A stretch of 25,211 nucleotides of DNA from a virus (taxonomy: Duplodnaviria; Caudoviricetes), in the IMG/VR virus record IMGVR_UViG_3300035148_000116, positions 1-25,211 of that record, one strand, 5' to 3'. A program made the position numbers and the translations under genes. The notes under the pieces were generated by a model that saw only the letters and a program-made list of their open reading frames with translations, ran no database searches and was not told the DNA's origin. How positions within the stretch are numbered: position 1 is the stretch's first letter; each line of letters starts with the position of its first letter. Shown piece after piece: positions 2,778-24,502 of this stretch.

Positions 2778-5220
2778 TCTCATCCTCCAATTGACTACGA
2801 ATGGCCTGCCCGAGGGCCTGACCAGCCGCCTGAGTACCGAACTGATAGGCGCGACGCGCCGGTGTTCTAATCAACTTCCCTGCCGCATCCTTGGCCCCAA
2901 ACGAGCCTTTGGACATGAGCATTCTACGACCAGCCTGCGTGTTCAGCGCCGCCCCAGCTCCGGCCAGAGCAAGCGGGGCTCCAACAAGACCAGCGAGCCT
3001 CTGATCCTCTGCCAGGATAGCGCCCAGACCTAAGCCCGCCGCACTCAGACCTCCAAGCTGGCGAGCCATACGAGCGGTGGACGCCCCTTGATTCTTGCCT
3101 GGGATTTGCTCTAGATCGATGCGCTTGATTAGCTCACGAAGTGTATCAAGTTCCTTGAGCTCATCAGGCGTGAACACCTGACGCCCCGCCTTACCGAAGT
3201 CCAGCCTGCGGGCCGCTTTCGCAGGATCGCTAGCGAAGTCAGACAACGCCCGCTCAACGAGCAACTGCTTCGCGGCCTGCTGTCCTTCCGGGTCCAGAGC
3301 CTTGATAAGATTAGCGGCCTTCGCACCGTGTTCAGGCAGCAGACTTGACGATACCACCCGGTCAGGGTCAAAGTCTGGGCGCATCATCTTGCGGACGTTG
3401 CCCGGTTGCTTGAACACTTCGAAGTAATCAGTCTTGTATTGATCGCGGGCCTTATCCCACAGACCCTTGACCAGCTGGTTCTTTTCGCCCCACTTATCAA
3501 GGTCGCCCTCCAGTCCCTTAAACAGGGTCTTGAGCGCGCCTACCTCTTTCTCGGTAGCTCCTCCGGTATACGACGCTTTTTCAGCAGCCTTAATCGCCGA
3601 ACCAATGTCTTCACGCAGAGCGCGGGCCTCGTCAAATGACAGGGTGACTTGGCGCATGACGGGCTTGCCCTGAGCATCAAGGATAGTCCCGGCTTGAGGC
3701 TTCGTTCCCTCGATGATTTGCCCCACCCGTCCCCGCAGTTTGGACAGTCCGAACTTATCAAACACATCCTGCAGTTCAGAGCTGACATTTTGTGCCGCGC
3801 TCCGTAGGTTGTCAACCCCGACCGTAGTCGTACCGGTCTTCTTGGCTGCCTCGGCCACCTTGTCAAACGAGGCGCTGACGCTTTCCTTGGCCTTCGCCGC
3901 CGCCTGCGCGACTGAATCAAGAACCACGCGCTCAGCCCCTTCTTGCTGAATGCGCGGGGTTGAGAACTTCTGGGTTGTACGAGCCACGAGGTTGCCAAGC
4001 TCCCCAGCCTGCTCTTTCTCAGCCTGCTGAAGAATGCCGCCAGCAACGGGAGTGTACCGCTGCGCCTTCTCAACCAGCCCGGCGATCTTGCTGCCTTGCT
4101 GAGCTGGCCTAAGACCTACTCCCGCAGCGGCAGCGGCCTGAGCCAACTGCTGCTCTTGGGGATTGGCCCAGACGTTGCGAACGGCGTTGGTGACCTTGGC
4201 GGGCGCCCACTCAAGCGCCTTCTCAATCGGCCTAGCGACCGCACCACCGAGTGCTCCAGCGCCAGCGCCGATGGCCGCATTCTGAAGCCTGCTTTCGCCA
4301 GTACCGACGCCTTCAATCCCAGCCTGTACGCCGGATCCAAGTGCCCCGAGACCGATACGGCCCGCCGTCGTAGCCGCGCCAGCGGGAGCGACCATAGACG
4401 TAGCGACGTCAGTAAGAAGAGCGCCAGCCTTGCCAGCGCCGGTCTTCATCAGCGGGGCGTCCAGCCTACGCTTCTCGTCCATGTCAGCAGCCGTCGCGTT
4501 ACCGGTCAGCTGCTTGATGCCCTGCCAGTAGTCCATGAAGCGCCCACCGGCTCCAGCCATGACCTTACCGGCGGTGCTCATGCCTGCCGTCGGGTCTACC
4601 TTGTCACGTATGAAGTTCGTGTAGGCGTCGCCACCGGCAGACTGTAGAACCTGCTGGGGAGTGGCACCGGCCTTCAGCGCTCCCTGAACCTTCGGCCCCC
4701 AAGTCGGGTGTTTGGCGAGGCTGGCGACAATGTCCTCTTCCTTGATACCTTCGGATAGGGCACCGACGATGCCCATACGAAGCTTCCTCTTTTCTGATTC
4801 CATAGATTGCCCCCCGGCTGCACTACCCCCTTGCGCCTGTTGCGTTTGAGCACCCTGTGGAATCACAACTGACACATACTTCTTAGTTTCCGGAAACGTC
4901 GGCTCTTTACCCTCAGCTACGAGCCTACCCTGCGAAGTTCCACCGTTATAGTGGGCGACCGCCGCAGCCGTGTTCCCCTTATACTGCTTGATCAGGTCGG
5001 CCATGTACCGCGCACCGGCATCAATGTTCTGTGTCGGATCAAACGGGTCGGTAACTCCATAGGCTTTCGCCGTGGCAGGCATCAGTTGCAGAGAACCCTG
5101 CGCTCCCTTCGGGGATACCGCTTTCGGGTTCCCGCCGCTCTCTTGCCTGAGCATCCGAGCCAAGACATCAGCCGGGACGCCGTACCGCTCTGCTGCTTCC
5201 CGAACAAGGATGTCTGACAT
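2767..5220 (-). CDS. DNA ejection / internal virion protein with N-terminal SLT lytic transglycosylase domain (817 aa)
   Basis: QESGGNPKAVSPKGAQGSLQLMP (catalytic Glu and G..Q motif), N..AGARY, AVAHYNGG and ETKKYV motifs of SLT/GH23. Remainder Ala/Gly-rich helical. Synteny with podovirus ejection proteins. Confidence 0.88.
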   Translation of the reverse strand: MSDILVREAAERYGVPADVLARMLRQESGGNPKAVSPKGAQGSLQLMPATAKAYGVTDPFDPTQNIDAGARYMADLIKQYKGNTAAAVAHYNGGTSQGRLVAEGKEPTFPETKKYVSVVIPQGAQTQQAQGGSAAGGQSMESEKRKLRMGIVGALSEGIKEEDIVASLAKHPTWGPKVQGALKAGATPQQVLQSAGGDAYTNFIRDKVDPTAGMSTAGKVMAGAGGRFMDYWQGIKQLTGNATAADMDEKRRLDAPLMKTGAGKAGALLTDVATSMVAPAGAATTAGRIGLGALGSGVQAGIEGVGTGESRLQNAAIGAGAGALGGAVARPIEKALEWAPAKVTNAVRNVWANPQEQQLAQAAAAAGVGLRPAQQGSKIAGLVEKAQRYTPVAGGILQQAEKEQAGELGNLVARTTQKFSTPRIQQEGAERVVLDSVAQAAAKAKESVSASFDKVAEAAKKTGTTTVGVDNLRSAAQNVSSELQDVFDKFGLSKLRGRVGQIIEGTKPQAGTILDAQGKPVMRQVTLSFDEARALREDIGSAIKAAEKASYTGGATEKEVGALKTLFKGLEGDLDKWGEKNQLVKGLWDKARDQYKTDYFEVFKQPGNVRKMMRPDFDPDRVVSSSLLPEHGAKAANLIKALDPEGQQAAKQLLVERALSDFASDPAKAARRLDFGKAGRQVFTPDELKELDTLRELIKRIDLEQIPGKNQGASTARMARQLGGLSAAGLGLGAILAEDQRLAGLVGAPLALAGAGAALNTQAGRRMLMSKGSFGAKDAAGKLIRTPARRAYQFGTQAAGQALGQAIRSQLEDENAP

Positions 5221-6798
5221 TTAGCCTCCAAAGAACTTGTCGGCAGGGTTGCCTTCCTGCTCTGGGGCAGCAGTCGGGACCGCACCTCCACCCGCGCCAC
5301 CTCCAAGAATCTTAGGCCGTGGAACGCTGAACTTCATACCCGGATTGCGCTTGGAGTACTCACCAATGACCTCGGGATGGTACGCGCCCTTGAAGTTGTC
5401 CAAGCGACCCTGCACCTCATTCAGCACCCGATTCCAGCCGGTAACGAAGTCAGTATCATTCATGAACACGCCCTGCTGGAGCTGGTCCAGGAAGCGCCGG
5501 TTCTCTTGATCAGTGACCGCCAAGCCTGACTGCGCCTGCAAGAGCTTATTGGACACAGACTTGGCCGCACTCCGCAGATCCTTGCCTTCTTGACTGAGCG
5601 CCCACTTCGGCAGCATACCAGCGACTGTACCAAACCCCGGCACGTCTCCCTGGATACCACCACGCACTCCCTTCTTGAGCTCCAGCTTATCAAGCAGCGA
5701 GTTCACCTCGTTGATGCCCGCAAGAGTCGTGGGCACCATCTTAACCTCAAGCTCCTTGCCCAGCTTCTCAGTGTCGTTGGACAGAGCCTCTTGGCCCTTG
5801 ATCGACGTTGGTGACCTCGGGCTCACCTGCCCTGGGAGCGGCCTAGCGGGGCTGTAGGGAGTCGCAGGGGCAGGGGTGGCACCACCCCCTACCGGGGCGG
5901 TTTGAGGGGCGCTAGAGGGCTGTAGAGGGGCCGTAGGGGCTCCCGCAGCGGGCGGGGCGTTTACCCCCGGCGGAGCAATCCCAGGAGTGGCAGACGGCGG
6001 CGCTCCACCGTTCCCCCACGTCCGTTTGTCCACCAGAACCTGCTCACCGCGCTCATTGGTCGCCAGTACCAGAGCACCGTAGGCAATCCCCTGAGCAATC
6101 TCAGGCGGGATACCCATGTTGATGAGCTCTTTCATCTTCTGGTTGGCATCCGTCGGGCTTTCGCGCTTCTGCCCACCGAACGGGATGGCAGGGCCAGACG
6201 GTCCAGCGTTCTGGTCAATCCAGACCTTCTCTTGCTTACCCGTCTCGGGGTTGAACCGCTCAGAAATTTCCCACTTCGGCATACGGTTCTGCTGGGCCAG
6301 AATGCCCGTCATGCCCTGCTTGCTGATGTCAGCGGCAGGCCCACCGAGGCTCATGCCCTTCATGTAGTGACCCAGCAACTCGGCCTTGGAAAGAGGCCGC
6401 TGCGTCTGGGACTGAAGTCCCTGTGACGCTTGCGCCACATCAGCTTCATCGAAGCCTGGAGCCACGAACGGCTTGGTCTCGGTCTTACCCTCCACCAACG
6501 GCTTCATCCAATCCTGAATTGCGGTTTGCTGACGGTTCCGCATTTCAGAGATCTTACCAGACGTTTCCTTGCCCAGCATCATACCGCCGATGCCAGAGAA
6601 AGCGTTCTGAATACCCGTCGCAGCGCTCGGGCGAATGAACCGGCCCCCTACGATACGGCCCTGATCAGTGTCTTGCGAAAAGAGGCCCTTGTTCGTAAGA
6701 GCGTCTGCGAGCGCCCGCTGGCGGGCAAGGTCTTCAGCCTCTTGCTCAAAGTCCGCGTACTGCGGAAGAGGCTGCTGAGGGCTAAAGAAGTTACGCAT
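5221..6798 (-). CDS. Putative DNA ejection / internal virion protein (525 aa) with central Pro/Ala-rich linker
   Basis: Position between the pilot protein and the SLT protein, Gly/Ala/Gln-rich helical composition, stop-start coupling with neighbours. Confidence 0.65.
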   Translation of the reverse strand: MRNFFSPQQPLPQYADFEQEAEDLARQRALADALTNKGLFSQDTDQGRIVGGRFIRPSAATGIQNAFSGIGGMMLGKETSGKISEMRNRQQTAIQDWMKPLVEGKTETKPFVAPGFDEADVAQASQGLQSQTQRPLSKAELLGHYMKGMSLGGPAADISKQGMTGILAQQNRMPKWEISERFNPETGKQEKVWIDQNAGPSGPAIPFGGQKRESPTDANQKMKELINMGIPPEIAQGIAYGALVLATNERGEQVLVDKRTWGNGGAPPSATPGIAPPGVNAPPAAGAPTAPLQPSSAPQTAPVGGGATPAPATPYSPARPLPGQVSPRSPTSIKGQEALSNDTEKLGKELEVKMVPTTLAGINEVNSLLDKLELKKGVRGGIQGDVPGFGTVAGMLPKWALSQEGKDLRSAAKSVSNKLLQAQSGLAVTDQENRRFLDQLQQGVFMNDTDFVTGWNRVLNEVQGRLDNFKGAYHPEVIGEYSKRNPGMKFSVPRPKILGGGAGGGAVPTAAPEQEGNPADKFFGG

Positions 6799-16476: not shown

Positions 16477-16481
16477 ACGCT

Positions 16482-16510
16482 ACTGTACCACAGTCCTTGT
16501 CGGATTGCAA
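16482..16510 (-). promoter_or_regulatory. sigma70-type internal promoter
   Basis: TTGCAA-17 nt-TACAGT with extended -10 TG. Near copy of the terS promoter. Confidence 0.6.
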
Positions 16511-18825: not shown

Positions 18826-19102
18826 CGCCCATCGCTTCGTCGAGCGCTCGCTCAATCTGACCACGACGGCCGGTGTACGACTTGGCGGCCCTCGCAGCTA
18901 CGCCGTCGCCCAGCATTCCGGGTTTGGGCTTCTCATACTCTTTGGCCTCTTCACGCGCCCACTTCTTGCCGGTCGCGCCTCCGTGCTCCTTGCGCTCTTC
19001 CTTGGCCCACGTGTCTGACGGCGGCATCGCCTTATGCTCGCCCTCCGACTCTTCCTTGTTGAGCCACTTGATCAAACCGGCCAGAATTCCGTTCTTGTCC
19101 AT
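18815..19102 (-). CDS. Hypothetical charged protein (95 aa)
   Basis: TAATG coupling to the TerL stop, Lys/Glu-rich, internal WAKEE/WAREE repeat. Confidence 0.65.
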   Translation of the reverse strand: MDKNGILAGLIKWLNKEESEGEHKAMPPSDTWAKEERKEHGGATGKKWAREEAKEYEKPKPGMLGDGVAARAAKSYTGRRGQIERALDEAMGDAK

Positions 19103-20439
19103 TACCTGATCCTCCCTACGAATTGACGCATATGTTGTTCATGGTCCTGCCAGAGCGCGTCAAGAGTATACGCGGGCGGAGGCAGAGTAATGATGCTCGA
19201 TTCACGCTTCGGGGCTGTGAGCGTGGCGGGCTCAATGGAGAGTGCCAACTGCCGGAAGGCGTCGGCGAAGTCTGATGCCCAGTTGTGGAGGGGCTTGTCC
19301 AGGTATCGCTTGTTCTCTTCGTCATACTTCTTCTGGTAGACCTTCAGCGCCTCAATGCCGATGTAGCACTTCTCCGCATCAAAGTTGCATCGCTTCAGAA
19401 GTTTCCGGGTGGCCTGAATCCCATCCTGCAAGTCCAAGCGGGGAACGATCTCACACTTCAGCTGGTGGTCATACGCGAGCTGTTCGATAACTGAGCGTTT
19501 CGTCGCCAGAGTTTTCGCCTTCGCGTCATGCGGCAGGAAGTGAGTGTCGTAATCGTAGTCCTTGGACCTCAGCACCTCTACGAAGTGGTCCACGTCCTTG
19601 CCGTTCGCGGCGTACACGTCCAGGACGCGTATCTCCTTCGCCACCTCTTGCGCGAACCAGATGACCGTGTTGTCGTTGCGCCCGATGTCCCAGTAGGTGT
19701 TGACCTTGAAGCTCTCCTCCCATGGGACGGCACCGATGCGCCCTTCCACGGAGGCCTTCTTCATCTCAGCTCCGTAGTACGCCCCGACAATCGCCGCTTC
19801 AAAGTCGCACTCGTACTCTTGGTTGTACTGATCCTCCGTCATCGACTTCCGCGCGTCCTCCAGCTCGTCTGCTGGAATGATGCCGGTTTCGGAGGCCTTC
19901 AGTTCTAGATACAACCAGTCCGGGTCGTTGCGGGCCTGCTCCCGAACGTCGTAGAAGGCATTGTGTCCCTTCGGGGTGCCGATGAACGTCGCCCATCCAC
20001 GTCGGTCACTCAGCAGCGGACGGATAACCGTACCCCAGATGGCCGGGTTCATGTCCGCGAACTCGTCCAGGATGACCCCGTCCAAGTAGATACCCCGGAG
20101 GGCGTCGATGTTATCCGCGCCAAAGAGCCGTATCAGACTCCCGTTCATCAGGCTCACACTGAGCTCTGACTCCAGCACCTTGGACTGTATCCCCTCCGTA
20201 CCTTTCTTCAGGTAGTCCCACGCGATCATCTTGGCCTGACCGTAGTACGGCGCGATGTACGCATATCGCGCGTCCTTCTTTCGCGTGTAGAGCGCCCGCG
20301 TGACCGTGTCGTTAACGACCCCTACGGTCTTCCCCGCGCGGCGGTGGGCGACGATACAAGTCCATCGGTTCGCCCGTTCGTGGTACGGGAGGAACTGGAT
20401 CCGGGGCTCGTATGGGAGCTTCCGGAGTACTTCATTCAT
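19102..20439 (-). CDS. terL: Terminase large subunit
   Basis: Q-motif PRIQ, Walker A HRRAGKT, Walker B VILDEFA, FIGTPKG coupling motif, RNase H-like nuclease residues WDIGRND and SDFADAFR. Confidence 0.95.
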   Translation of the reverse strand: MNEVLRKLPYEPRIQFLPYHERANRWTCIVAHRRAGKTVGVVNDTVTRALYTRKKDARYAYIAPYYGQAKMIAWDYLKKGTEGIQSKVLESELSVSLMNGSLIRLFGADNIDALRGIYLDGVILDEFADMNPAIWGTVIRPLLSDRRGWATFIGTPKGHNAFYDVREQARNDPDWLYLELKASETGIIPADELEDARKSMTEDQYNQEYECDFEAAIVGAYYGAEMKKASVEGRIGAVPWEESFKVNTYWDIGRNDNTVIWFAQEVAKEIRVLDVYAANGKDVDHFVEVLRSKDYDYDTHFLPHDAKAKTLATKRSVIEQLAYDHQLKCEIVPRLDLQDGIQATRKLLKRCNFDAEKCYIGIEALKVYQKKYDEENKRYLDKPLHNWASDFADAFRQLALSIEPATLTAPKRESSIITLPPPAYTLDALWQDHEQHMRQFVGRIR

Positions 20440-20758
20440 CAAGGGCCGTCCGGGGAAGGACCATCTTCAGCGTCGCGTCCACGTTGGCATTCATCTCTTG
20501 GGGAAGCATACGCGAGTAGAGCTTGTAGAATTCGGTGGGCTGCTGATCAGCCCATAGCGCGAAGCGGGGAACCCCTCCAATCAACTCAAAGGCCGTGTGG
20601 AAGGCCCGCTCGACGTTCTTACGGCCGACGCTGCGTGGAACTGGGTACGGACGGGTTCGTTGCGCGAGGGCCTGGAACGTATTGTCCATTTCCTGCTCAG
20701 CCAGAGCTTCATACTCGGCCTGAGTCAGGACCTCAACTTTCGCTGGTGCGTTCGCCAT
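20432..20758 (-). CDS. terS: Putative terminase small subunit (108 aa)
   Basis: Overlaps the terL start. AF..IGG...F..WA...P.EFYKLYSRMLP pattern resembles small-terminase-position proteins. Confidence 0.7.
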   Translation of the reverse strand: MANAPAKVEVLTQAEYEALAEQEMDNTFQALAQRTRPYPVPRSVGRKNVERAFHTAFELIGGVPRFALWADQQPTEFYKLYSRMLPQEMNANVDATLKMVLPRTALDE

Positions 20759-20764
20759 ACGCGC

Positions 20765-20793
20765 ATACTACCACAGTACGGATCGGAATGCAA
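20765..20793 (-). promoter_or_regulatory. sigma70-type promoter of terS / late operon
   Basis: TTGCAT-17 nt-TAGTAT with extended -10 TG. ATG follows 6 nt later. Confidence 0.65.
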
Positions 20794-20956
20794 GAGGTAG
20801 ACTCCCCACATGATGGTGCGGTGCAGCATATACTGTCTACTCCACATCTAGGTGGGCATGAACTCCACACTCCGGATTTTAGTAGATCCTATGGTTGGAG
20901 GTCCACTGCGTGTTTTTAGCCGTACTCCCCTGCCTTTTTCATCCCCTCCCCGAGTC

Positions 20957-21038
20957 GCCCAGTCTGGGCATCGTCGTCGTCCGCCCAGAATGGGCTCGTG
21001 CCCAGAATGGGCAGCTCCGCGCTCCGCCCAGTCTGGGC
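20957..21038. repeat. Four 13-bp palindromes GCCCAG(TC/AA)TGGGC
   Basis: Copies start at 20957, 20983, 21000 and 21026, in A-B-B-A order with start spacings 26/17/26. Confidence 0.9.
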
Positions 21039-21043
21039 GCTGA

Positions 21044-21216
21044 TAGTGGGCGCTTACGAACAGCGCACCAAGATGGGGCAGTCGCTAGTGGGCGCTTACG
21101 AGCGAAGACCCTCCACGACAGTAGGGTATCGAAGTGGTCGCTAACTAGCGATGACCCCACGAGTTAGTGGGTCTTTACGTTAGTGGTCACTTGCACTGAA
21201 GTGGGCGCTTACGAGC
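21044..21216. repeat. AGTGGGCGCTTACGA direct repeats (3 exact, 3 degenerate)
   Basis: Exact copies at 21045, 21087 and 21200. Degenerate copies near 21133, 21166 and 21182. Confidence 0.85.
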
Positions 21217-21249
21217 ATACCCTAGCGCGACGTGGGGTCATCTCACGTC

Positions 21250-21339
21250 CTGGCACGGAGTTTGCTAGGGCAAGGACCATGCCAGTCAGCGCTCGCCGCT
21301 CCGCTGGCACGGAACGTGCTAGGGCAAGCTCCGTGCCAG
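21250..21339. promoter_or_regulatory. Two 36-bp palindromic units, each made of two head-to-head sigma54 -24/-12 boxes
   Basis: Plus TGGCACGGAGTTTGC (21251-21265), minus TGGCATGGTCCTTGC (21284-21270), plus TGGCACGGAACGTGC (21305-21319), minus TGGCACGGAGCTTGC (21338-21324). All are GG-N10-GC. Confidence 0.75.
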
Positions 21340-21487
21340 GACTCCGTCTGTACCGAGACCTTCCGTTTGGCGGCTGGAGCGAAGTGTTGCGTCTTTACAA
21401 CCTTCTGCGACGCGGTTGACCTTACACTACGCTTGTTGGGTGGTTCGGGGGCAGTCGCCTACCGGCCCAACGTCTAGGGTGTCCATC

Positions 21488-22417: not shown

Positions 22418-24502
22418 CTAGAACTTGGCACGGAGTTCCCCGCATTCCCAACGATCCACTGGGATAACGTAGGGCTTCCGTATCCCAGCCAAGACCGTGT
22501 CGTATCGCTTCCAGCCCCAAGTTGACAGCTGGTTCGCGATTAGCTTCGTAGTTCCTGGCGAGCCGTGGTCACGTGCGGAGTACCCGGCCATCGCCATAAT
22601 CTCCGACAGCTTCATTACGAACACATCCGCTCCGTGATGCTTCGCCCGCTTGAGGTTACTGGCGTCCCGCAGCACATCCTCCAGCAGCGTAAGAGATTCG
22701 TTGTGAACCACATACTCTTCCACACCCGAAGTCTTAACGGCCAGAACCTGTGATGGATCGACACTCCCGAGGCCGTGCAGATACATGGCCTCCGCCCAGA
22801 GCTGTTCCCTATCATCCTCCAGCTTCTTGAACATGACCTGTTCAGCGGGAACGATCACATACCGACGGTAGCCTGACGGGTCGTGCGACAGGAAGTGGGC
22901 GTTGTTCGTGCTGCCGTACAGGACGCACCGCCGCTTGTAGGTCTTTTCAATGCGACCGTAGGGAGGGCGGAATACGTCGGTGGGGCTGGTGATAATAGCC
23001 TTCAGCCCTTCCACGTCCCGCTTGTTCATGGCCTCCAGCTCTTCGAAGCTGACGCACCACCCGCGATGGAACAGCGCCTTGAAGTCCTTGCCATCATCGC
23101 TGTGAGTCATGGGCACGACCTCGTCAGGCCCGAATAGTATTCGCGGGAGACTGGACTTGCCGATGGCCTGCGGGCCGTTCGTGATTAGCATCCAATCCAC
23201 TAGACAGCCGGGCTCGAGGCGGCGCTTGACCGCAGCGACCATGAACTTGAGACCTGCCTCCCGTACGAGGGGAGTGTCGGGTGCGCCGATGTAATCAATG
23301 AGCCATGTATCCAGGCGGGGCTTGCGATCCCACTTTAGGGACTTGAGCCACTCGTTGATGGGGCTGCGCTGGTCGTTTTCAGCTATCTGGCGGATGGCCT
23401 CGTACACGTCCTGACGCCGTGCGGTGGGGATGCTGAGGTTGTACTGAAGATAGCACAGGACGGCGTTGGTGTCGCCCTCTTTGAAGGGCTGATCACCGTT
23501 CATCATCTGGTTGCTGTCCAGGTTGACCCAGAACTGGTCGGCGAAGGCCTCGTGCTGCTGAACTAGGGTATGGACGTTGGAGGCGTTGGGTATGATCTCC
23601 TGCCGCTGATTCTCGGCCCGGCCCACGAGCTTCGTTACGAGGTTGAAGCGGTTAATGAGGGCGATGGGCGGTTCCACCATATCCACCCGCCCGTTGACCA
23701 TAGGCTCGGGGGTAAGTCCCTCAAACTGCTCTGGGCCTTCCCACTCGACTATAAGGTCGTCGATCTTCTTGTCTCGGGGCGGAACGCGGACTTCCACCTG
23801 GAAGCCAAGTTCGTTTATCAGTCCGATCATGCCGCCGTAAGCGGTCTTTATCTGGAAGCGCCGATAGTCACCATCCGGCACGACTATAACGAGCTCGGGG
23901 GCGCGGCGCTGAATTGCCTGAACTATCCACGGATGCAGCCGGTTGTCGCCCGAAGAGGCCCGCCAGTTCCAGCACCCGCCGATGGCAATAGCCGGTATCT
24001 TCAGGTGGGCCATGATTGCTGCGGCCTTTTTCTCACCTTCCGTGATGATAATGCGCTTGCTATCCAGAGACCAGAAATCTGGGTGGATGTACGGAATGTG
24101 AGCCAGCGTTTCGCCGATTAGCGAAGCAGGAGGCTGGAGGTACTTTCTCTTGCGTTCCTTAGGGTCAGCCGTTTCCGGTACGAAACGACGCCTGCGGTGC
24201 ATTGTCAGGAAGCCGTTGTTGTCCTTTAGGACGTTGCCCTGCAGATCGAAGTATGGGATGTAATACGATACGCGGCCAATCTGGTCACCGAGTGGTGCGC
24301 TGATCGCGTTGGGAACCGACTTGATATAATCTGGCGTGAGGCCGCTTCGTGCAAGGTCTTGCTTCATGGCCGCTTCGCTGTCTGCGAAGAGGTCCTCGGT
24401 CTTTAGGCCGATGAATGTTACCTTGGCTGATGCGGCCTGCTCAGTGGGACGATGCCAGTTATACCAGTCGTATGAATACTTCTGTGACGACGGTAGCCTC
24501 AT
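22418..24502 (-). CDS. Primase-helicase: N-terminal TOPRIM-like (DUF3854-type) primase plus C-terminal VirE/VapE-type SF3 helicase (694 aa)
   Basis: IIITEGEKKA and VPDGD TOPRIM motifs. WL.SL.WD..PRL, Walker A GPQAIGKS, Walker B VSFEEL, FRPPYGR, motif C GSTNN and D.SG.RRY. Confidence 0.88.
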   Translation of the reverse strand: MRLPSSQKYSYDWYNWHRPTEQAASAKVTFIGLKTEDLFADSEAAMKQDLARSGLTPDYIKSVPNAISAPLGDQIGRVSYYIPYFDLQGNVLKDNNGFLTMHRRRRFVPETADPKERKRKYLQPPASLIGETLAHIPYIHPDFWSLDSKRIIITEGEKKAAAIMAHLKIPAIAIGGCWNWRASSGDNRLHPWIVQAIQRRAPELVIVVPDGDYRRFQIKTAYGGMIGLINELGFQVEVRVPPRDKKIDDLIVEWEGPEQFEGLTPEPMVNGRVDMVEPPIALINRFNLVTKLVGRAENQRQEIIPNASNVHTLVQQHEAFADQFWVNLDSNQMMNGDQPFKEGDTNAVLCYLQYNLSIPTARRQDVYEAIRQIAENDQRSPINEWLKSLKWDRKPRLDTWLIDYIGAPDTPLVREAGLKFMVAAVKRRLEPGCLVDWMLITNGPQAIGKSSLPRILFGPDEVVPMTHSDDGKDFKALFHRGWCVSFEELEAMNKRDVEGLKAIITSPTDVFRPPYGRIEKTYKRRCVLYGSTNNAHFLSHDPSGYRRYVIVPAEQVMFKKLEDDREQLWAEAMYLHGLGSVDPSQVLAVKTSGVEEYVVHNESLTLLEDVLRDASNLKRAKHHGADVFVMKLSEIMAMAGYSARDHGSPGTTKLIANQLSTWGWKRYDTVLAGIRKPYVIPVDRWECGELRAKF

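Follow-up and report, generated by a model that had tools for sequence, protein, structure and literature searches.

In the non-coding gap beside the terminase genes of a podovirus-like phage contig, four sigma-54-type boxes are arranged as two head-to-head pairs, and our searches show that such pairs are real and widespread and form a sigma-54 version, apparently not described before, of the host-box clusters found at phage terminal regions. The four boxes match the binding motif of host sigma-54, and their binding by the holoenzyme is predicted. As the best explanation, to which we give a probability of about 45%, we propose that the boxes are non-firing docking sites for host sigma-54 within an interchangeable host-protein platform predicted to grip or shield the entering DNA end. 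Whichever explanation holds, hundreds of uncultured phage sequences would engage a sigma factor that has been little studied in phages. Throughout, the window denotes the whole stretch of DNA analyzed, 25,211 nucleotides in length.

Four sigma-54-type boxes in the gap upstream of terS

Head, tail and terminase genes occupy the minus strand of the window to 20758 and are followed by a gene-free gap of 730 bp, after which come ORF132 on the plus strand and then a VapE-type primase (Table 1). Among cultured phages, the closest TerL is that of Rhodoferax phage P26218. The terS candidate had no matches in comparisons with PHROG and Pfam; its sigma-70-type promoter is kept in all three relatives described below. 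A second sigma-70-type promoter, matching that of terS, is found on the minus strand at 16477-16510, before a 67-aa gene that precedes the head genes. In both promoters the -10 element lies 5-6 bases before the ATG, and terS and the 67-aa gene are thus predicted to be expressed from leaderless mRNAs. The homologs of ORF132 share many invariant residues and its structure model is a confident one (pLDDT 88), with no fold matches to the model in the PDB. We considered ORF132 as an activator or an anti-sigma factor and rejected both roles, as there were no matches by family, PDB sequence or PDB fold. It co-occurs with a sigma-54 box in all four phages, the window and its three relatives.

Table 1. 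Features in and around the gene-free gap of the window
Feature	Position	Strand	Remarks
Terminase large subunit (TerL)	19102..20439	-	40-45% identical to P26218 and HTVC010P-type podoviruses
terS, 108-aa gene directly upstream of terL	20432..20758	-	Called by position
Sigma-70-type promoter for terS	20759..20793	-	TTGCAW-N17/18-TANNNT-N6-ATG, placed for leaderless mRNA
C-rich tract	20925..20951	+	Conserved in the three relatives; ~170-200 bp upstream of terS
Four GCCCA-N3-TGGGC palindromes	20957..21038	.	Sequence pattern
Five copies of the AGTGGKCRCTWAC-type repeat	21044..21214	+	Tentatively resembles a SlmA box with one good half-site
NtrC-like site, one mismatch	21065..21079	.	Three such sites, two of them perfect, at the corresponding place in relative L126
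Whole two-pair unit with 14-bp outer inverted repeat	21247..21342	.	Sequence pattern
Sigma-54-type box 1 (-24 GG, -12 GC)	21250..21266	+	Predicted start ~21277
Sigma-54-type box 2, facing box 1	21269..21285	-	4-bp centre 21266-21269; predicted start ~21258
Sigma-54-type box 3	21304..21320	+	ORF132 begins 169 bp after the -12 element; predicted start ~21331
Sigma-54-type box 4, opposite box 3 and nearly a copy of box 1	21323..21339	-	Predicted start 21312
ORF132, conserved protein, 132 aa	21488..21886	+	84 homologs

The initial annotation had described two 36-bp units 54 bp apart, with four GG-N10-GC boxes forming two head-to-head pairs, and all of this was recovered, the units lying at 21250-21285 and 21304-21339 and being 83% identical. 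The distance from GG to GC is exactly 10 bases in all four boxes. The described full or near matches to TGGCAC-N5-TTGC resolved into two exact boxes and two with one mismatch, and the 4-bp centre between the opposing -12 elements was likewise present. Shuffling the window 300 times with a first-order Markov model never produced a head-to-head pair, compared with the two observed; single boxes were unremarkable in number across the window (6 observed vs. 2.35 expected), so that the significance rests in the clustering. The outer 14-bp inverted repeat, which had been thought to frame the arrangement, is exact, but 11 of its 14 bases belong to the box itself and it is not kept in the relatives. 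We rejected it as a frame, as it reflects no more than the close likeness of boxes 1 and 4. The 54-bp distance had also been read as five helical turns, a reading that was not established, the pair-to-pair helical phasing being weak (p ~0.02 at 11 bp and 0.10 at 10.5 bp, with four periods tried and families that are not independent); a pair-to-pair period of 54-56 bp recurs in six loci, including that of Vibrio phage VpV262. As a whole, the unit is a tidy but ordinary example of the feature. At the end of the primase gene (22426-22440) there is an 11-base copy of the start of box 1, which has the -24 half only and lacks the -12 GC.

Conservation, distribution and genome position of the pairs

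Searches with terS and ORF132 yielded three distinct phages as relatives: L126 (complete record G050), with one pair and a 4-bp centre; L128, with one pair, a 5-bp centre and a third box; and L407, with one full box and a -24 half-site. The box counts are four in the window and two, three and one in L126, L128 and L407, respectively. As two relatives have a single pair and L407 a single full box, the conserved unit is the pair or the single box, and not the four-box device envisaged in the initial annotation. Across the relatives the N5 bases vary, and the GG, the GC and their spacing are constant. The box that faces ORF132 keeps a distance of 157-177 bp to the start of that gene in each of the four phages, including one with an inverted block. 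The inversion is seen in L407, in which the block with ORF132 and the sigma-54 box is turned against terS, the junction lying just past the conserved C-rich tract. We regard this tract as a candidate terminus or packaging site. The GCCCA-N3-TGGGC palindromes are present in three copies in L126 and in none in L128, and the AGTGGKCRCTWAC-type repeat is found in two of the three relatives as well.

A conservation scan of the kind suggested in the initial annotation found the pattern in the relatives and also in unrelated phages. From 9 of the 64 parts of the IMG/VR collection, we estimate that the head-to-head pattern occurs in ~940 stretches, whereas the spacing controls gave 14 (N6) and 20 (N4) stretches in the whole collection. 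The centre is 3-7 bp long in 127 of 151 distinct matches and is 72% A/T. At positions left free in the query, a purine follows TGGCAY in 97% and A/T follows TGC in 85% of 254 half-sites, in agreement with the RpoN motif (PMC8743547, in part). The spacing controls and the consensus at these unconstrained flanking bases support the sigma-54 identity proposed for the boxes. Among GTDB genomes (596 Gb), ~690 stretches matched and the spacer lengths were nearly flat; there were 33 matches with a centre of 3-7 bp, 16 of them belonging to one Leptospira attC-like repeat and 17 being at the background per length. The head-to-head pair is a phage feature, with no excess in cellular genomes except for the one Leptospira repeat. 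Direct pairs are equally common (~1000 stretches, with an 11-14-bp gap in 101 of 159), the same box also occurs singly and as direct repeats, and the largest arrays have 12 boxes of mixed orientation in ~320 bp or 27 boxes in 8 kb. The N5 arms of the pairs are complementary at 1.49 of 5 positions, in comparison with 1.79 +/- 0.09 for shuffled pairs, which argues against a hairpin. With complementarity below the shuffled level and an Rfam search giving no credible match, we rejected a structured RNA or hairpin.

The initial annotation had noted that no sigma-54 activator is encoded in the window, and this extends to other phages: the activator domain PF00158 was found in none of 50 records (of 65 loci; 8 of the records are at least 90% complete). 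The sigma-54 DNA-binding domain PF04552 was likewise found in 0 of the 50 records, 8 of them at least 90% complete. Given these two zero counts and the division of the TerLs beside the pairs into nine groups, the binder does not appear to be made by the phages. A T7-type polymerase was found in none of five records, with the control search likewise giving no match, so that this zero carries no weight.

The Leptospira repeats lie between single-gene cassettes and have the pair in mid-repeat, with a 4-bp centre and unpaired N5 arms. Their end motifs make these repeats resemble integron attC sites. In Leptospira yanagawae L204, the repeats are at 771-933, 1960-2125, 2930-3100, 4637-4800 and 5556-5720, and the head-to-head pair was seen also in the Leptospira repeats of L147, L152, L156, L162, L175-L177 and L202-L207. 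The Leptospira pair is either a chance match on a palindromic family or a set of sigma-54 sites within attC.

A TerL was present within the 4-kb flanks of 28 of the first 80 loci (31 once the window and two of its relatives are added). Of the 34 contigs having a phrog_2 TerL, 32 place the pair no more than 12 kb upstream of terL, in comparison with 13.0 expected under uniform placement (a single contig was read across its ends, and one pair or TerL was chosen in contigs with more than one); the distance to terL has a median of 4 kb and a range of 0.6-11 kb. The 31 TerLs beside pairs form nine groups at 50% identity, two of which are short fragments, and as a single group holds 18 of the 31 loci the counts are not independent. 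In larger phages the boxes are spread over 4-14 kb, and one 354-kb record has 15 of its 17 boxes within 4 kb. These placements, together with the left end of VpV262, bear out the suspected association with terS and with the end of the genome. The gap upstream of terS is also simply the largest free space, which weakens the positional argument.

VpV262 (46 kb) was found by its match to the array of L071. All six of its boxes are at 173-346, that is, 35-208 bp inward of the annotated left terminal repeat (1-138, 138 bp); they include two head-to-head pairs 55 bp apart, and the first gene starts at 1034. The order at the junction, with terminase genes pointing away, a gap, the boxes and then early genes, is the same as in the window and suggests that the phage genome of the window ends in the interval from terS to the pairs, possibly at the C-rich tract. 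This placement is drawn by analogy with one cultured phage. In T7 the left end enters first, and a left end of the VpV262 type may be read in the same way; the predicted first-entering end would then be the platform end. After the sigma-54 array, the left end of VpV262 carries three FadR-like repeats (L399:404-487). The array is absent from four other phages of the VpV262 family, RIO-1, CVT22, PS32B.1 and 1.077.O. The box pattern had no matches in YuA and three in V22, and the strict box was absent from 10 of 13 other GenBank records, including that of P26218. As arrays are missing from members of the VpV262 family, from P26218 and from YuA, the feature is dispensable or replaceable. BLAST searches with five arrays or platform stretches returned VpV262 as the sole sigma-54 array among cultured phages, and protein searches for cultured relatives gave no cultured matches.

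Other host-protein boxes near the pairs

An unbiased scan for spaced palindromes near the pairs placed an NtrC-type motif among the top ranks. We then counted the matches of 15 host motifs within 400 bp of the pairs at 90 loci (64 kb, boxes masked) and compared them with 30 shuffles. Enrichment was seen for Fur (11 observed vs. 0.07 shuffled, at 9 of the 90 loci), SlmA (12 vs. 0.17, at 8 loci), NtrC (11 vs. 0.13, at 8 loci), IHF (31 vs. 3.9, at 23 loci) and DnaA (24 vs. 7.1, at 14 loci), as well as for parS (3 vs. 0.17) and a GlrR-like motif (5 vs. 0.67). At the same 90 loci, CRP, CtrA, PhoB, matS, NrdR and gammaproteobacterial LexA were not enriched near the pairs, and for FNR, NifA and alphaproteobacterial LexA any enrichment was marginal. 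The motifs of NtrC and SlmA were checked in PMC8743547 and PMC3020112, respectively (both in part). Counting all types, another host box is present at 36 of the 90 pair loci, or at 22 when IHF is left out. The strict NtrC, SlmA, Fur, IHF and DnaA patterns had no matches in the window, where only one-mismatch versions occur; in L126, three NtrC-type sites lie 224-270 bp upstream of its pair.

The AGTGGKCRCTWAC-type repeat of the window occurs in tandem in 48 viral stretches; SlmA-type palindromes are present in 33 of these, a perfect DnaA box in 23 and a sigma-54 box in just 2. The presence of SlmA-type sites in 33 of 48 stretches vs. sigma-54 boxes in 2 makes the type of box appear swappable. 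The SlmA-type palindromes are dense in L413-L460 (e.g., L414:600-800, L421:450-650 and L454:600-900), with up to about ten in L454; these arrays often have a DnaA box and lie beside a G/C tract, and L414 has a small terminase-like gene. DNA-bound SlmA blocks FtsZ, and SlmA-type arrays might thus delay host division. One stretch, L025:2560-3160, has within 600 bp an NtrC site, two Fur sites, three SlmA sites, one IHF site and a sigma-54 pair, and its Fur-type repeat matches non-coding DNA of T5-like, Munch-like and other cultured phages. Sigma-54, SlmA, NtrC, Fur, IHF and DnaA follow unlike regulatory logic, but all of them bind DNA tightly and do so without phage gene expression.

Docking, promoters and other readings

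Sigma-54 holoenzyme binds its sites and remains closed without an activator (PMC4591121, in part). On the docking explanation, the host holoenzyme would bind the pairs and stay closed for want of an activator. A face-to-face pair would provide a site in either orientation within 34 bp, probably for one enzyme per pair, and the A/T-rich centre shared by both boxes would be where each closed complex starts melting the DNA. Sigma-54 and the neighboring host proteins may load immediately as the leading end enters, hinder back-sliding in the manner of a ratchet and cover the end. Tentatively, and with some doubt, we extend this to many unrelated lytic phages, which would have at their leading end a platform of interchangeable boxes (sigma-54, SlmA, NtrC, Fur, IHF, DnaA, parS) where an idle sigma-54 polymerase serves as an energy-free clamp that ratchets the genome in and caps its end. 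Evidence against docking comes from the textbook NtrC sites near some pairs, which fit real activation.

Real activation would mean that a host activator, for instance NtrC, fires the pairs as bidirectional sigma-54 promoters or regulatory sites and that they tie phage expression to the state of the host, as CtrA sites do in some alphaproteobacterial phages; we consider this rather unlikely. Placed 12 nt beyond each GC, the predicted starts point away from each other at a distance of 19 bp in both pairs of the window, so that the layout is not impossible for a promoter. It resembles that of sigma-70 bidirectional promoters, with starts 18 bp apart (PMC12825309, in part), which weakens the earlier view that the geometry is poorly suited to promoters. 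Activation is also favored by the enrichment of NtrC and IHF near the pairs, the three NtrC-type sites upstream in L126, the constant distance of the ORF132-facing box in all four phages and the sigma-54-like promoter carried by YuA (PMC10914365, in part). The placement of the boxes points the other way. After 11 near-duplicate loci had been dropped, a gene start with a ribosome site was found within 60 nt of the predicted start for 5 of 219 paired boxes and likewise for 5 on the opposite strand (5.9% at random); single boxes were slightly promoter-placed, 10 of 87 vs. 3 of 87, which favors activation. The counts for paired boxes suggest that these are not placed like promoters, in line with the doubts about ordinary promoters in the initial annotation, and the test is suggestive only: it is blind to leaderless genes and to long leaders, this phage is predicted to use leaderless promoters, and some sigma-54 promoters have leaders of 360-760 nt (PMC4591121, in part). 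With terS having a sigma-70-type promoter of its own, the left-facing boxes are not needed for terS. Arrays of 9-12 boxes in mixed orientation are beyond any promoter need, NtrC sites occur at only 8 of the 90 loci, and the SlmA, parS and DnaA boxes fit no single regulatory logic.

In one further explanation, replicated genome copies would titrate host sigma-54 holoenzyme, together with such proteins as SlmA and DnaA, with the effect of damping sigma-54-dependent stress or motility programmes or of changing division. The high-scoring boxes in large arrays, the absent activator and the apparent irrelevance of orientation would suit such a sponge; we find it improbable, as titration needs no fixed position, yet the boxes keep to one sector, the relatives hold only 1-3 of them, and IHF and Fur are too abundant to be titrated. 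In another, improbable to much the same degree, a stable complex would pause the terminase motor or mark the concatemer junction for duplication of the terminal repeat and cutting. The boxes are near terS and terL and, in VpV262, near the mapped end; IHF-type boxes lie ~160-320 bp from the pair in several loci, and the cos site of lambda is served by IHF. As the last-packaged end is the first to be ejected, position is unable to separate packaging from entry, but the spread of boxes over 4-14 kb in larger phages and the distances of 0.6-11 kb to terL are too loose for a landmark of cutting. Very improbable, finally, are a hairpin or cruciform, a phage-dimer operator whose likeness to sigma-54 sites is incidental, and a roadblock between the early and late arms. 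The position at the strand switch and the DNA folding energies (-14.5 kcal/mol for unit 2 and -35.7 kcal/mol for the whole 96 bp) are in favor of these; the low complementarity of the N5 arms, the centre varying from 3 to 7 bp and the occurrence of the same box singly and in direct repeats are against a hairpin or operator. The variable centre, the lack of an RpoN-like domain (PF04552) in the 50 records and the flanking gene clusters, which share no regulator, speak against a phage-dimer operator. The roadblock, an idea of the initial annotation, loses ground with the finding that intragenic sigma-54 sites in Escherichia coli neither blocked transcription nor repressed the overlapping genes (PMC4591121, in part).

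In motif and in the exact GG-N10-GC spacing, the phage boxes are like the -24/-12 promoters of bacterial sigma-54 (RpoN) (PMC8743547 and PMC4591121, both in part), to which the holoenzyme binds without firing; some phages even have NtrC and IHF boxes nearby. Unlike those promoters, the phage boxes form face-to-face pairs or dense arrays in gene-free DNA, without proximity to genes and without a dedicated activator. The lytic phage YuA, which has no polymerase of its own, is reported to use host sigma-54 at the sigma-54-like promoter P015 (PMC10914365, in part), but this is a single promoter, and pairs and arrays are absent in YuA. Sigma-70 bidirectional promoters similarly have overlapping opposite sites with mutually exclusive binding and starts ~18-19 bp apart; they share one -10 element, whereas the phage pairs have separate -12 elements 3-7 bp apart and need an activator, and the available text of PMC12825309 does not mention sigma-54.

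The nearest precedents are clusters of CtrA and DnaA boxes. In alphaproteobacterial phages, CtrA binds sites in terminal repeats or gap regions and activates or represses promoters (PMC9437464, in part). Like those clusters, the boxes described here are for a host regulator, lie in terminal or gap non-coding DNA of unrelated phages and turn over rapidly: they are clustered in a non-coding gap, recur across nine TerL groups and differ in number among close relatives. The differences are that a sigma factor is involved, that the pair geometry is fixed and that several unrelated host boxes are mixed; no mention of sigma-54 was found in the available text of PMC9437464. Our literature searches, at the level of titles and abstract openings, found no description of such sigma-54 arrays, and the original paper on VpV262 may mention left-end motifs. 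How tailed phages complete DNA entry and how their naked ends survive are long-open questions, and the motif at the mapped end of VpV262, with RpoN in the host species, makes them testable. If the boxes do act as a clamp, a sigma factor would have a non-transcriptional job, and there would be a general, sequence-encoded way of completing phage DNA entry. The boxes also hint at the host, which would be among RpoN-bearing bacteria only, and may mark genome ends in metagenomic contigs.

The injection-stop region of T5, with eight DnaA boxes, is similarly a terminal non-coding block for which a role in DNA entry was proposed in silico (bioRxiv 10.1101/866236, in part). It differs in having boxes for DnaA and not for sigma-54, in lying ~9 kb inside the end and in being proposed to stop entry. 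In the T5-like phage DT57C, we found Fur, DnaA and LexA-type boxes, and no sigma-54 box, at the injection-stop region. In the cultured Limnohabitans phage DC31, five perfect DnaA boxes are intermingled with two sigma-54 boxes (L396:3100-3350, corresponding to 20108-20350 of the phage), and the cluster sits within a gene-free gap of 930 bp.
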